64,000 nt of DNA from a phage. Below are positions 46,823-63,571 of this stretch, piece by piece. Where the stretch lies: NCBI GenBank assembly GCA_022901335.1, contig GCA_022901335.1_3641.1; one strand, written 5' to 3'. Position 1 is the stretch's first letter. Every line of letters begins with the position of its first letter. A model generated the notes under the pieces. The model saw only the letters and a list, made by a program, of their open reading frames with translations, was not told where the DNA came from and made no database searches. The translations under genes were made by a program, and so were the position numbers.

Positions 46823-47587
46823 TTGAAATTTATCTACAAAGAACACTACCACAAAGGTGTTGTGTGGAGTCTGTTTGACGGGTCTGGTGGTGCAGTCATT
46901 GACTGGGCAAAAGCTGGGTACCTGTGCCTGTGCTTTAATGCAGAAGGTGCTGATCACGGCAGTTATGCAGAGGTGATAACCGATCATCCCAACATTCACT
47001 ATGTGGATTATTGGATTGACCCATGGTTCCCTCAGGAAACTTTTTGCATGTACCCAGCTCCAGACTTTATTCTTGCATTTCCTCCGTGCACGCATTTAGC
47101 GGTATCAGGTGCTGCACATTTTAAGAAAAAGCTGGCTAAGGATCCTTTGATCCAAATTAATGCTGTAAAGGATGCTCGGGTTGCGGAAGAACTGGGAGAG
47201 ATTTACGATTGCCCGTGGCATGTAGAGAATCCTGTTGGTGTTATGTCCACACTGTGGCGCAAACCTGATTACCGTTTTCATCCTTCTGACTATGGCGGGT
47301 ATTTACCGGAGGATGATGTAAACCCCTGGTTTCCTGAATTTATAGCTCCACGTGATGCCTATCCAAAAATAACTTGCGGCTGGATAGGTAATGGATTTAT
47401 AATCCCGGCCACAAAACCTGTCCCGCAAATAGTTGACGCGGTTAGCGGGTATTCCATGCAACACGCCAAGCTGGGCGGAAAGAGTGCAAGAACGAAGATG
47501 ATCCGAAGCCTCACACCACGTGGCTGGGCAAAAGCCGTATTCTTAGCAAACGAGCCTGCAGTAAGGAGAAGGGCAAATGGTTGTTGA
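46823..47587 (+). CDS. short C5-cytosine-methyltransferase-like protein
   Basis: TTG start after RBS AGGAGA; motif I-like LFDGSGG, PC motif FPPC, ENV-like ENPVG; lacks a recognisable target-recognition domain. Confidence 0.4.
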   Translation: MKFIYKEHYHKGVVWSLFDGSGGAVIDWAKAGYLCLCFNAEGADHGSYAEVITDHPNIHYVDYWIDPWFPQETFCMYPAPDFILAFPPCTHLAVSGAAHFKKKLAKDPLIQINAVKDARVAEELGEIYDCPWHVENPVGVMSTLWRKPDYRFHPSDYGGYLPEDDVNPWFPEFIAPRDAYPKITCGWIGNGFIIPATKPVPQIVDAVSGYSMQHAKLGGKSARTKMIRSLTPRGWAKAVFLANEPAVRRRANGC

Positions 47588-48251
47588 CTGGAGCAAGTAT
47601 TTCACCTATAGCGACGGCAAACTGTTCTGGGCGTATACCGCAAAAGCCGGAAGGGGTAGGATCATACATTACGCAGGTGAGGAGGCCACAGGCACAGATA
47701 AAGATGGCTATAGAGTAATAAATGTGTCAGGTGTTGGAAGTGTTCGTAGGCACAGAATAATTTGGGAGATGCATTACGGAGAGATACCTGAAGGTCTTGT
47801 TGTTCGGCACAAGAACGACATAGCAGGGGACGACAGGATAGAGAACCTAATCCTGGGGACACAAGGTGATAATGCACGAGACATGATCTACAGTGACAAG
47901 CTAAACATTAACAATACCTCAGGGTATCGTGGCGTGCGCTATCATAGAGGTATAAAAAGATGGACTGCATCTGCTGGAGACATATACTTAGGGTGTTTTA
48001 AGACAAAAGAGGATGCAATTGCATGCAGAAAGTTATGGGAGAAAGGAAAATTCGTCCCGCAAGAATTAGATGTTAGAAACACTAGCGGTGTAACAGGGGT
48101 GTTCTATGTGCCGAGCTCTGGAAGGTGGAGAGTCCGAGTGCAAAGCGGCAAAAAGAGAAAGAGCTATGGCACTTACAACACTTTAGAAGAAGCAAAAGCT
48201 GTAAGGGATAAGGTGATGAAAGAGATTGAGGAGTTTAAAGATGGGGAATAA
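47577..48251 (+). CDS. HNH homing endonuclease with two AP2 DNA-binding domains
   Basis: HNH_3 motif HRIIWEMHYGEIPEGLVVRHKNDIAGDDRIENLILGTQGDN; AP2-like SGYRGVRYH...W and SGVTGVFY...GRWRVRV...YGTYNTLEEA. Confidence 0.7.
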   Translation: MVVDWSKYFTYSDGKLFWAYTAKAGRGRIIHYAGEEATGTDKDGYRVINVSGVGSVRRHRIIWEMHYGEIPEGLVVRHKNDIAGDDRIENLILGTQGDNARDMIYSDKLNINNTSGYRGVRYHRGIKRWTASAGDIYLGCFKTKEDAIACRKLWEKGKFVPQELDVRNTSGVTGVFYVPSSGRWRVRVQSGKKRKSYGTYNTLEEAKAVRDKVMKEIEEFKDGE

Positions 48252-60291: not shown

Positions 60292-60492
60292 ATGGAGACT
60301 AAAATCTTAATTCTGGCTGTGATAGATACGACCGAAGGGGCCGTGTTCGAATCTGCAGGAGGGTATTTCTACCTGCCCTACGGAAAAATAACTTCCGAAC
60401 CGAGTAAAGATTCAATCCTTAAAGTGTTCCCTTGTGCTTTCTGGCTGGAGATTCTGGTAGAAGATTGCAGAGGATTGGGGAGAGAATTATGA
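60292..60492 (+). CDS. small hypothetical protein
   Basis: 66 aa, RBS GAGAGGGAG. Confidence 0.4.
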   Translation: METKILILAVIDTTEGAVFESAGGYFYLPYGKITSEPSKDSILKVFPCAFWLEILVEDCRGLGREL

Positions 60493-60683
60493 GAAACAAG
60501 AAAGAGCTTTACTCTGGCGAGTGGATCAACGATCAACAGGTCGGAGAGGTAACCTGCTTCAGGTGTTTTACTCGGTACAATCTTAAAACTGCACCAAAAA
60601 GTGTTCCAAAGACTGACGGTTATTACATAAAAGAACCTCATTGCCCAAAATGTAAATGCCGATTGTACTGGAGCAATCTATAA
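60489..60683 (+). CDS. small zinc-ribbon protein
   Basis: ATGA overlap start; CFRC...CPKC Cys pairs. Confidence 0.4.
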   Translation: MRNKKELYSGEWINDQQVGEVTCFRCFTRYNLKTAPKSVPKTDGYYIKEPHCPKCKCRLYWSNL

Positions 60684-61546: not shown

Positions 61547-61736
61547 GCTTAAATCTGCATGGAACATCGCTGTGGGGGACGAGATCCGCATCCCAGGTGG
61601 AAAGACCATTATGAAGATATCACGTATCGAGTATGAAGGTGATCGTGTATTTCATATCTTTGCAGAAGATGGTCGAGAAATTTATATACAGGCAGGCTCT
61701 CACATCTATATCCATAAGAAAGGGGACGACAAATGA
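61533..61736 (+). CDS. small hypothetical protein
   Basis: 67 aa, RBS GGAGGG. Confidence 0.4.
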   Translation: MQMFKLKSAWNIAVGDEIRIPGGKTIMKISRIEYEGDRVFHIFAEDGREIYIQAGSHIYIHKKGDDK

Positions 61737-62065
61737 CAGAGATCATCGTTTCAACTGCAGGGTATGTATTCCTGACAATCATTGCGTTGGCTATTCTGGT
61801 GGCGGTGTATGGATTTGTTATCCTGCCTATTCTTGAGACATTTAGCTTGTGTCGGTGTTGGAGAAAAGCTTACGGACCACAACCGTGGAAAGACTGGTTT
61901 CATTTGGTGCGTATAGCGTTCTCTTATGCCTATGATCACTCCAGCAGTGCATGCGTAACCGGGTACCATGCCTACAACTGGAACTGGGAAGGGCTGGGGA
62001 GATGGACTGTTACAAAAACTATACCCTTACGGTTGTATAAAGGAAAGAACACACTGGGAGCCTGA
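61733..62065 (+). CDS. small membrane protein
   Basis: hydrophobic N-terminal helix YVFLTIIALAILVAVYGFVILPIL. Confidence 0.45.
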   Translation: MTEIIVSTAGYVFLTIIALAILVAVYGFVILPILETFSLCRCWRKAYGPQPWKDWFHLVRIAFSYAYDHSSSACVTGYHAYNWNWEGLGRWTVTKTIPLRLYKGKNTLGA

Positions 62066-62109
62066 TATTTTAAGTTATCAGGTTGCCAGAGATCAGGAGG
62101 ATTTCTAAA

Positions 62110-62322
62110 ATGGATTTCCTCCTTTTGATATTTTACCTACCAGGATATTTTAAAATCCTTAGAAAATCAGAAAATGGATCGAAAACTAAAATGGATTTTT
62201 CAGAGCAGGCACGACGAGATGAACCACTCATCCTATCGTCTGCACCATATTCCAGACCACCATTACAGATTTCCCGCACATGCTCACACCCTTCTACTAG
62301 AACTTCCCCCACTTACCTTTGA
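62110..62322 (+). CDS. possible small protein (70 aa) in repeat-rich region
   Basis: ATG 62110 nine nt after AGGAGG; hydrophobic N-terminus; overlaps AAAATGGAT repeats, so weak. Confidence 0.25.
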   Translation: MDFLLLIFYLPGYFKILRKSENGSKTKMDFSEQARRDEPLILSSAPYSRPPLQISRTCSHPSTRTSPTYL

Positions 62323-62375
62323 CCTTTTATAGTAATAATCCAACCACTACCTTGAAGTTGTGGCGCAGCTTTCCA

Positions 62376-62560
62376 AGTACTCGATCTGTTTTTCGTTTCA
62401 AAGATTGAATTTTCTGAAAATTTTTCTCGATAAATTTCTCAGTACTCGATCTGTTTTTCGTTTTCTGAATCGGATTTTCTGGAAATCGTTCCGGCTCTCG
62501 ACCTGAAATTTTTGGGGACGAAATCGATTTTTCGTTTTCAGAAATGGATTTTTAAAATTT
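62376..62560. repeat. three iteron-like direct repeats (core CGATCTGTTTTTCGTTTTC + GATTTTCTG)
   Basis: copies start near 62376, 62441 and 62515; AT-rich non-coding context. Confidence 0.5.
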
Positions 62561-62666
62561 CTATATGGGAATATTTTAGTGGATACTATTTTATAGGAAA
62601 TTGTTACGGAGGGTAATTAGCGTGCTAATTAAATTTATTAAATGCGAGGAGTTCTCATTTAGAATT

Positions 62667-62685
62667 TTGAATGATAATCATTCTC
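62667..62685. promoter_or_regulatory. Fur-box-like palindrome A
   Basis: 15/19 matches to GATAATGATAATCATTATC with ATGATAATCATT core intact. Confidence 0.4.
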
Positions 62686-62784
62686 GTTTGCAGAATAACG
62701 GGCAGGCCTGGTGATTGTCTCCCGGCCCCTACTGCCCCGGCTTGTTATTATAGTAACACACAGGACAAAGAAAGCAAGAAGTTT

Positions 62785-62814
62785 TTGCATAAATTTTTAG
62801 ACGATAATGATAAT
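62785..62814 (+). promoter_or_regulatory. sigma70-like promoter TTGCAT-N18-GATAAT overlapped by Fur-box B
   Basis: -10 hexamer lies inside the Fur-box-like palindrome. Confidence 0.4.
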
Positions 62815-62821
62815 CGTTCTC
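62803..62821. promoter_or_regulatory. Fur-box-like palindrome B
   Basis: GATAATGATAATCGTTCTC is 17/19 to the E. coli Fur consensus. Confidence 0.5.
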
Positions 62822-62901
62822 ATTTCATGCAGCGCCCATCCCCGGTGGTTGTCTCCCCCGTCACCGGTGCCTGCCGTCCTTTCGATAGGTATATTTTGCC
62901 A

Positions 62902-63040
62902 CCTGGCGGGGCCACTGTCAACACTTTTCAAAAAAAAATTTCTAACCTGATGCGCTGACCGCTGCAACCTGGCGGGGCCAGCCTGGCAGGGCCTAACTGA
63001 CCAGGTAGGAGATAATGAAGGCTTGCAAACCTGGTGGGCC
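62902..63040. repeat. four copies of CCTGGYRGGGCC motif
   Basis: copies at 62902, 62968, 62982 and 63030; each contains a CCTGG (CCWGG) site. Confidence 0.4.
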
Positions 63041-63051
63041 TATGCTATAGG
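63023..63051 (+). promoter_or_regulatory. possible sigma70-like promoter TTGCAA-N17-TATAGG
   Basis: hexamers 30 bp upstream of the 63082 ATG. Confidence 0.3.
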
Positions 63052-63081
63052 ATAGGTAACAATTGAAGAGGAGGTACAAAA

Positions 63082-63264
63082 ATGGAAGGTAATATGATCC
63101 CCCTGGAAAATGTAGCTATTAATGACGCTGAGGCTATCGCCCTGGTTGAAAAGGCTATGGCGGGAGCGTTGGAACATAAAGAAGAGTACGAAAAAATGAT
63201 GGTTAACCTGGCAGGGGCGGCGGCTGGAGAATTCTACCCAAAAATAATTTTAACTAATGGTTGA
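63082..63264 (+). CDS. small hypothetical protein
   Basis: 60 aa with strong RBS GAGGAGGT. Confidence 0.5.
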   Translation: MEGNMIPLENVAINDAEAIALVEKAMAGALEHKEEYEKMMVNLAGAAAGEFYPKIILTNG

Positions 63265-63289
63265 CAGCTCGGACAGTTCTTGTTATTCT
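63261..63289 (+). promoter_or_regulatory. sigma70 promoter TGTTGACA-N17-TATTCT
   Basis: consensus -35; leader AGAGGATAAAAAATCATG shared with the next unit. Confidence 0.55.
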
Positions 63290-63542: not shown

Positions 63543-63571
63543 TTGACATATGGTCTGACACAAAATATACT
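63543..63571 (+). promoter_or_regulatory. sigma70 promoter TGTTGACA-N17-TATACT
   Basis: consensus -35; leader AGAGGATAAAATCATG. Confidence 0.55.

Follow-up and report, generated by a model that had tools for sequence, protein, structure and literature searches.

A conserved array of three direct repeats in a gene-free module of rV5-like phages: a probable cis-acting protein-binding site

Classical iterons are units of 17-22 bp. The primary origin of T7 is made up of promoters and an AT-rich region, T4 oriF and oriG each combine a promoter with a downstream unwinding element, and the unwinding repeat of E. coli oriC is the 13-mer GATCTnTTnTTTT. In phi29, the p4 sites are inverted repeats placed directly over promoters, in curved DNA between the early and late promoters. 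The stop site of T5 carries paired DnaA boxes inside inverted repeats (bioRxiv 10.1101/866236).

For rV5, the origin was sought by skew analysis, which found only transcription switches, and no promoter or terminator was listed in the gap considered here (PMC3606486). The repeat array described below is absent from the papers on rV5 (including Table S4), Certrevirus and Septuagintavirus. A literature search on the subfamily, covering origin, iteron, terminal-repeat and transcriptome work, returned no description of the array and no experiment on the region. Within the literature searched, the array and its subfamily-wide conservation appear to be undescribed; in kind, the array belongs, as a variant, with the repeat-based cis-acting control sites already known, and creates no new category. 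Collections assembled for phage therapy and food safety often contain rV5-like phages.

Repeat units and the surrounding gene-free module

We analysed a stretch of 64,000 nucleotides (hereafter the window) from a Vequintavirus, an rV5-like coliphage and myovirus. A repeat search of the window identified a three-copy family of 47 nt (62367-62413, 62432-62478 and 62506-62552), with copies starting 65 and 74 bp apart and the outer two sharing 77% and 74% identity with the middle one. Copies 1 and 2 can be extended to 57 nt at 79% identity. The exact 24-mer AGTACTCGATCTGTTTTTCGTTT is present twice, 65 bp apart (62377-62400 and 62442-62465), and the 17-mer CGATCTGTTTTTCGTTT, with up to 3 mismatches, occurs at these two places only in 64 kb, for 0.16 expected. 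Unit cores lie at 62380, 62445 and 62519. In copy 3 the first motif is degenerate (GACGAAATCGAT in place of GTACTCGATCTG); judged by comparison with other genera, this copy is nevertheless a true third unit. All three are direct repeats in the same direction, as they are in seven other phages, and in the complete Gotham genome the core pattern is confined to the array (one occurrence).

An earlier note on this DNA, made from the sequence, had described three copies of a ~40-bp unit. The three units are real, but each measures ~65-75 bp and is bipartite: a first motif, GG(T/G)(A/T)CTCGATCG plus a T-tract, is followed by a second, (A)TCGTATTTT or AATGGATTTT, at a constant distance of ~26 bp. The consensus over 24 units from 8 phages reads GG(t/g)(a/t)CTCGATCG..TTTTC(a/g)wwTTc.A.AtCGTATTTT, then, ~20 nt later, A5-6T5-6. 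The description of the stretch as AT-rich was confirmed, A+T reaching 67% over 62376-62565, where T alone makes up 43% of the + strand.

The array is part of a larger conserved non-coding module of ~0.85 kb, of which the 600-bp region outlined earlier covers only part. In the window the module falls in a gap of 1016 bp (62066-63081), bounded on the left by the final ORF of the upstream operon (61733..62065) and on the right by the early genes, the first of which is 63082..63264. Its elements are as follows.

62064-62071 (which overlaps the upstream ORF's stop codon), 62127-62134 and 62144-62151, + strand: three GATATTTT direct repeats
62095..62126, + strand: stem-loop AGGAGGA (62095-62101) / TCCTCCT (62117-62123), then a T-run
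62107, 62171 and 62188 (span 62107..62196), + strand: three AAAATGGAT motifs, the sole three sites in the window
62205..62375: rapidly evolving spacer, whose + strand is rich in C and poor in G (58 and 23 of 171 nt)
62374..62438: repeat unit 1, GTACTCGATCTG plus TTTTTCG (core C at 62380), then GATTGAATTTTC, then GAAAATTTTT
62439..62512: repeat unit 2, GTACTCGATCTG plus TTTTTCG (core at 62445), then AATCGGATTTTC, ending in the variable stretch 62490-62508 and AAATTTTT
62513..62570: repeat unit 3, GACGAAATCGAT plus TTTTTCG (register position 62519), then GAAATGGATTTTT and AAAATTT
62667..62696, + strand: promoter-like element P1, TTGAAT (62667-62672), 18 nt, CAGAAT (62691-62696)
62785..62821, + strand: promoter-like element P2, TTGCAT (62785-62790), 18 nt, GATAAT (62809-62814)
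62893..62921, - strand: leftward sigma-70-type promoter P_L, TTGACA, 17 nt, TG-CAAAAT, aimed at the palindromes, the stability minimum and the array

The array stands at the end of a replication-gene operon. On the + strand, this upstream operon encodes rIIB-like, PIF1-type helicase, methyltransferase, HNH endonuclease, DnaB-type primase-helicase and family A polymerase proteins. Downstream of the gap lie small early genes, each with a strong sigma-70 promoter; the flanking blocks are co-directional and of different type. Searches of Pfam and PHROGs found no initiator or DNA-binding domain in the flanking ORFs, and the lone domain among the flanking small proteins was a phage zinc-binding one (60432-60683). 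An ORF of ~275 aa located upstream of the module in five genera was considered as a binder and rejected, having no detectable relative in the window.

At the left edge of the gap, the stem-loop at 62095..62126 is probably the intrinsic terminator of the upstream replication-gene operon. Its stem is near-invariant in the genus, and slur12 carries a compensatory G>A / C>T change that preserves it; the element was missed by a terminator scan because its loop is 15 nt. GATATTTT has 8 sites in 64 kb, 3 of them in this cluster. A near-palindrome reported at 62143-62158, GGATATTTTAAAATCC, exists in the window, but its right arm is ATTC in 7/9 related genomes. It is therefore not conserved as a palindrome, and is better regarded as the third GATATTTT direct repeat. 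The reiterated AAAATGGAT elements also pointed out earlier were found as described, and motifs of this type, (A)AATGGATTTT / ATCGTATTTT, form the second half of every repeat unit.

The right half of the module is rich in promoter-like and operator-like elements, and a purely transcriptional role would fit it equally well. P1 encloses a 7-1-7 palindrome, TGATAAT-C-ATTCTCG (62672-62686), and is followed by GGTGATTGTCTCCC at 62707-62723. P2 is overlapped by GATAATGATAATCGTTCTC (62803-62821), with a second site, GGTGGTTGTCTCCC, at 62841-62857. Measured against the consensus that PMC11353095 gives for the E. coli Fur box, GATAATGATAATCATTATC, the P2 palindrome matches at 17/19 positions and overlaps the -10-like GATAAT, and 62672-62686 resembles a Fur box of the 7-1-7 type, placed between -35-like and -10-like hexamers. 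Such Fur-box-like operators in a virulent phage may hint at iron-dependent control. A hairpin around GGTGWTTGTCTC, downstream of P1, had seemed by eye to covary. It was rejected, since RNAalifold on 10 sequences gave -1.09 kcal/mol with no compensatory pair, and no one register suits all ten.

Promoters were called here as consensus matches. An equivalent of P_L, on the same strand and at the homologous place, was present in 9/9 phages, with scores of 9-11 out of 12; Seunavirus and Mydovirus have an extra leftward promoter directly beside unit 3. With the promoter retained in all nine, transcription directed at the array and the stability minimum is, as far as sequence shows, conserved. In the window, the nearest promoter-like hexamers are >100 bp from the array, which itself contains none.

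Conservation within Vequintavirus and across genera

The 1.1 kb around the array is 99.5% identical to Escherichia phages of the genus, and matches 122 phage records at 80-99.5% identity. Numbering of the window runs opposite to that of rV5: rV5 promoters at 116444-116472 and 116141-116186 correspond to 63261-63289 and 63543-63571 of the window, which places the repeats at ~117.17-117.36 kb of rV5. Alignment of nine Vequintavirus genomes, 5-13% different over the stretch, gave the following conservation by block.

62096-62204: 82% invariant columns, few indels
62205-62375 (spacer): 44% invariant columns, 74% mean pairwise identity, indels present
62376-62489 (repeat block): 86% invariant columns, no indels
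62509-62565 (repeat block): 93% invariant columns, no indels
62641-62930: 89% invariant columns, few indels
Adjacent ORF: codon position 3 54% invariant, codon position 2 88% invariant

Between the conserved blocks, fast-evolving stretches were found at 62205-62375, 62490-62508 and 62931-63060, the last with large indels. The short stretch 62490-62508 was 63% invariant, FV3 being divergent at many positions there. As measured in this alignment, the repeat blocks are under strong purifying selection, tighter than that on neighbouring genes. The patchwork of conserved and variable DNA is what would be expected of a set of discrete cis-acting sites.

Outside the genus, sensitive blastn detected matches to 62625-62778 only, at 71-86% identity and mostly in unannotated DNA, in Seunavirus, Mydovirus, Certrevirus, Henunavirus, Phapecoctavirus and others; this segment contains P1 and its 7-1-7 palindrome. 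We aligned eight extra-genus loci, with one or two genomes per genus. All eight contained a gene-free module of 0.9-1.3 kb with an identical order of elements. Its first half runs from (T)GATATTT repeats through GAAAT(G/C)G-type repeats and a variable spacer to three long direct repeats; its second half continues with an A+T-rich stretch, 1-4 7-1-7 palindromes in a promoter-like element, GGTGWTTGTCTC, more promoter-like elements and the early genes. (T)GATATTT(G/T) was found at the same place in all other genera, in 2-4 copies.

The three-unit array is found at the corresponding position in seven genera of the Vequintavirinae: Vequintavirus, Seunavirus, Mydovirus, Certrevirus, Henunavirus, the W70 (Septuagintavirus) lineage and a putative Avunavirus-like contig of 121 kb, the last recovered by a pattern scan of IMG/VR. 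An independent repeat search again recovered three units, of 67 nt in PVP-SE1 (spacing 75 and 67) and of 63 nt in Hena1 (spacing 76 and 69). Across 8 phages, cores of units 1 and 2 are 65-84 bp apart and those of units 2 and 3 are 63-74 bp apart, and in all eight measured the distance from the first to the third unit is 139-148 bp. Phapecoctavirus, of another subfamily, keeps the palindrome and promoter parts and has, at the array position, unrelated repeats consisting of two 72-nt units 138 bp apart.

The core itself differs between lineages: GTACTCGATCTG in Vequintavirus, GGT(A/T)CTCGATCG in Seunavirus and Mydovirus, GGGTCTCGATCG in Certrevirus, and (G/A)ACTTGAG(A/G)GG in W70 (all four cores) and in units 2 and 3 of Hena1, whose unit 1 core is intermediate (ACTCGAAAGG). 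The change is concerted within a genome, CTCGATCG being converted to CTTGAGRGG throughout W70 and in 2/3 of the Hena1 units. Three core variants are found among E. coli phages, and one variant is common to an Erwinia and an E. coli phage. Since core variants cross host lines, a host protein is unlikely to be the reader, and since the motif co-varies with phage genus, a phage-encoded binder is indicated. The simplest inference is that the array would be read by a phage-encoded protein that co-evolves with it.

Scans of E. coli and other bacterial genomes yielded nothing comparable to the array. Three less obvious contigs from an IMG/VR scan with a two-core pattern were inspected: two were Vequintavirinae, and the third, from a giant-virus bin, carried a tandem repeat with no relation to the array; the other ten, of 83-152 kb, were judged by length. 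The same pattern gave 38 matches in 185,579 bacterial species genomes, none of them in Enterobacteriaceae; several were long tandem or CRISPR-like repeats, and we take the 38 as chance, so that they would supply no plasmid or prophage analogue. The palindrome region gave one insignificant match against 5426 E. coli genomes.

Functional readings of the array

The earlier note held that no convincing ORF spans the repeats. Comparison of nine genomes confirmed this, the candidate ORFs failing on start, stop, frame and codon phase. The start codon of a 48-aa ORF over units 1-2 (62360..62506) is present in the window only, and its 23 variable sites are distributed 7/10/6 by codon phase; an ORF of 34 aa over unit 3 (62512..62616) contains stops in 3/9 genomes, and one of 95 aa (62671..62958) has its frame broken in 4/9. 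With no conserved start, no open frame and no codon-phased substitutions in the alignment, a protein-coding gene over the repeats was rejected. A structured RNA was likewise rejected, as Rfam contained no family matching the window or the 8 related loci and the folding energies of the repeats did not depart from those of shuffled sequence, with z = -0.16 and +0.71 for the two strands.

DNA of unusual physical character adjoins the repeats. By nearest-neighbour energies, 62543-62642 (76% A+T), next to unit 3, is the least stable 100 bp of the 64 kb; the least stable 200 bp are 62498-62697 and the least stable 400 bp are 62298-62697. The stretch 62543-62642 is a candidate DNA-unwinding element. 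Among ~6400 windows scored for AA/TT periodicity at 10-11 bp, 62381-62580 comes second. With its A/T tracts helically phased, the array DNA is probably curved, curvature being judged here from periodicity.

Taken together, selection within the genus, the three-unit architecture in seven genera, concerted change of the cores, helical phasing and the adjoining stability minimum argue that the array is a functional, cis-acting protein-binding site, a reading to which we assign a probability of roughly 0.85. The earlier note had proposed a candidate replication origin or regulatory array. A functional cis-acting array is supported by these results, and its sequence is compatible with either role.

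A role as replication origin is the reading we favour, with odds somewhat short of even. Origin-like features present at the locus are repeats beside the most easily melted DNA, a conserved promoter facing inward and a location where the replication operon ends. Repeat sequences that evolve in concert are, by analogy, how iterons and their initiators evolve. Of the usual origin features, the search found neither DnaA boxes nor IHF sites, no initiator gene that could be recognised, no excess of GATC and no switch in skew. No DnaA box (TTATCCACA / TTWTNCACA, one mismatch allowed) and no IHF site was detected in 62066-63081, which leaves host DnaA and IHF, the partners suggested earlier, without support. 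GATC occurs at 4 per kb in the gap against a window average of 4.55 per kb; GATCTGTTTTTCG is present in units 1 and 2, and unit 3 and the Hena1 and W70 cores are without GATC. Across the gap, GC skew moves from ~0.13 to ~0.08 and AT skew from ~0.07 to ~0.14, each keeping the same sign on both sides. These shifts are small and uninformative; the flanks hold different gene classes.

Were the array an origin, a phage-encoded protein co-evolving with the motif would bind the three units and wrap or bend the DNA. Binding would stress the adjoining 62543-62642, where the DNA of the window melts most readily. Transcription from P_L would enter the region of the stability minimum and the array, and could open the DNA or supply an RNA primer, as at the origins of T7 and T4. 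The primase-helicase and polymerase encoded upstream by the phage would then take over.

It is less probable, though not implausible, that the array controls transcription or insulates, by binding a phage regulator or an architectural protein that sets the activity of P1, P2 and P_L. It would then separate the replication operon from the early block and time the early-to-middle switch, by analogy with the phi29 p4 sites. The gap does lie exactly between co-directional replication genes and small genes with their own sigma-70 promoters, it begins with a terminator-like hairpin showing compensatory change, conserved promoter-like elements on both strands and 7-1-7 palindromes stand 100-450 bp to the right of the array, and the array is phased and probably curved. 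However, P1, P2 and P_L are predicted promoters, the array contains no promoter-like hexamer and is more than 100 bp from the nearest, and three bipartite units with a fixed 141-bp span beside a stability minimum exceed what a simple operator needs. Far less probable is that the repeats encode a product, either a structured non-coding RNA or a small protein such as that of the annotated 48-aa ORF, a reading we regard as very remote. Several GenBank records annotate ORFs here, the repeat region is downstream of P_L and could be transcribed, and one RNA hairpin is able to form over unit 3; yet the start codon of the 48-aa ORF is variable and its substitutions are unphased, public records disagree on the frames and strands of ORFs in the gap, and folding at shuffled level on both strands and the want of an Rfam family offer no sign of RNA structure.

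The position of the array relative to the genome end was considered as well. Terminal repeats of vequintaviruses measure 458-459 bp (PMC6563267, PMC7471380). In Gotham, counted from the left physical end, the terminal repeat occupies 1-459, the gap ~10.9-11.9 kb and the repeats 11.43-11.61 kb (8.4%), with ~30 small genes between array and left end, transcribed toward the end. A 20-nt probe from the start of the Gotham terminal repeat had no match in the window with <=3 mismatches. A genome terminus or packaging site was rejected, the array lying 11.4-11.6 kb from the Gotham end, once per genome and outside the 459-bp repeat. We consider it improbable, if less so than a coding role, that the array acts during DNA entry as a checkpoint or tether of the kind represented by the T5 injection stop. 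In that case the array, perhaps with the palindromes, would be bound as the genome enters, so that transfer pauses, or the molecule becomes anchored, once the terminal ~8% with the early genes is inside. The 8.4% position at the inner border of ~30 small early genes recalls T5, which stops at 7.9%, in a 1.2-1.7-kb untranslated repeat region conserved above neighbouring genes (bioRxiv 10.1101/866236), and the opening 160 bp of the terminal repeat contain four degenerate copies of the gap palindrome. Nevertheless, two-step entry is known for T5-like siphoviruses only, DnaA-box pairs of the T5-site kind are absent, the terminal block consists of small genes with none the size of T5 A1, and the agreement at 8% is possibly coincidence. 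In its general form, the array would serve every rV5-like phage as a checkpoint in genome entry or genome organisation, the terminal early block being held back or looped off until early proteins are made; this analogy is equally speculative. If true, staged delivery of the genome would be a property not of T5-like siphoviruses alone but also of a large group of phages with contractile tails.

The conserved module offers a concrete, mutable target for origin mapping, for finding the DNA-binding protein, and for replicating vectors or engineering handles. The alignment also corrects public annotations that place unsupported ORFs across the region.

Comparison with known systems

Like the T5 injection stop signal, the locus is a conserved untranslated region of ~1 kb with repeats and palindromes, at the inner edge of a terminal early block and ~8% from the end; as in T5, it is better conserved than neighbouring genes, and related elements recur nearer the end. 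It differs in having no sequence similarity to the T5 site and no paired DnaA boxes, in the location of the array outside a 459-bp terminal repeat, and in belonging to a myovirus. With the p4 sites of phi29 it shares repeated T-tract/A-tract sites and, probably, curved DNA between transcription units of different timing, but its repeats are direct and distant (>100 bp) from the nearest promoter-like hexamers.

Similarity to the 13-mers of oriC is seen in GATCTGTTTTTCG, which in units 1 and 2 matches 9/11 specified positions, and in the presence of three T-rich repeats. In the array, however, the repeats are spaced by 65-74 bp rather than placed in tandem, and no DnaA boxes are nearby.

Iteron origins (lambda ori, P1 oriR, T4 oriE with RepEB, and those of plasmids) resemble the array in more respects. 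Both have non-coding direct repeats in the same orientation, intrinsic bending (probable in the array) and an adjoining A+T-rich, easily melted stretch, both are near replication genes, and in both the repeat sequence is lineage-specific and changes in concert. Unlike iterons of 17-22 bp at helical-repeat spacing, the units of the array are bipartite and 63-84 bp apart; they mostly number three (W70 has a fourth core), and neither an initiator gene nor DnaA boxes adjoin them. Transcription-primed origins, as in T7 and at T4 oriF and oriG, have no counterpart of the repeat array, and P_L is ~250-340 bp from the minimum rather than tens of bp. They are alike in the conserved promoter aimed at an A+T-rich minimum and in the phage's own primase-helicase and polymerase. 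By analogy, the array would merge features of iteron origins with those of transcription-primed origins.

Leftward promoter and left part of the gap

The non-coding gap between the replication-gene operon and the small early genes contains a promoter that is antisense to all flanking genes and recurs at the equivalent position in each of the Vequintavirus genomes compared (9/9). This promoter and the elements around it are located as follows.

62893-62921, minus strand: leftward sigma-70 promoter, TTGACA-17-TG-CAAAAT
62900-62916, 62966-62982, 63028-63042, 63205-63221: repeated motif (A/C)ACCTGGCGGGGCCA
62095-62126: hairpin resembling a terminator, loop of 15 nt
62205-62375: fast-evolving spacer, C-rich and G-poor on the plus strand (58 C, 23 G)

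There is no conserved ORF downstream of the leftward promoter. The promoter's own spacer is one copy of the (A/C)ACCTGGCGGGGCCA motif, and the region between copies at 62931-63060 is subject to large indels among close relatives. At the left of the gap, the hairpin carries a AAAATGGAT motif inside its loop, and its stem shows a compensatory double change in slur12, a Vequintavirus phage. The C-rich spacer could act as a Rho-utilisation-like tract for plus-strand transcripts, or could be the source of a G-rich leftward RNA; the non-coding DNA beside the terminal repeat of Gotham, a phage with known ends, is similar to it in composition.

The module in other genera

Directly downstream of the leftward promoter, non-Vequintavirus genera possess a highly conserved G+C-rich element of ~75 nt (CGAACTACCGGCGATCCACC...GCCCCGCCTTTTCGCCGTGGGGTGGCG), which is diverged in Hena1 (L016) and may be a leftward non-coding RNA. 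It has no counterpart in the window, gave no match in Rfam, and is replaced in Vequintavirus by a second palindrome plus GGTGGTTGTCTCCC copy. To the right of the promoter, the module of Phapecoctavirus, W70 (Septuagintavirus lineage) and an Avunavirus-like contig includes a plausible minus-strand ORF; this ORF is absent from Vequintavirus, where the corresponding stretch is variable.

L013-L015, L017-L020, L027 (e.g., L017 1640-1735): ~75-nt G+C-rich element
L013 about 1790-2090, also L020 and L027, minus strand: ~88-aa ORF (MTNTTLHLMHSLGWQGGTVHQV...)

Upstream genes and matching records

47577-48251: HNH endonuclease with AP2 DNA-binding domain
60432-60683: small protein with phage zinc-binding domain PF23903 (E = 1.6e-22)

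The HNH gene is inserted between the methyltransferase and primase-helicase genes; in PVP-SE1 and Hena1, HNH genes lie directly upstream of the non-coding module. The gene for the PF23903 protein lies upstream, 1.4 kb from the gap; no other ORF nearby gives any hint of nucleic-acid binding.

Matches in the phage collection to this E. coli Vequintavirus region include sixteen GenBank records titled 'Campylobacter phage' whose stated host is Campylobacter jejuni; those listed (e.g., MG065635.1, MG065658.1) are 94-98% identical. Their host labels look doubtful.

Fur-box-like palindromes

62672-62686, 62803-62821: 7-1-7 palindromes, TGA(T/G)AAT-C-ATT(C/A)TCA
62644-62664: degenerate third palindrome
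Gotham (L034) 12-26, 30-44, 128-142, 146-160: four degenerate copies

The window palindromes overlie promoter-like hexamers, and such palindromes are conserved throughout the Vequintavirinae genera examined, as well as in Phapecoctavirus. The four Gotham copies occupy the extreme start of its 459-bp terminal repeat. One window palindrome matches the E. coli Fur box at 17/19 positions. The pattern suggests regulation by iron/Fur, or else by a phage regulator whose site is Fur-like.
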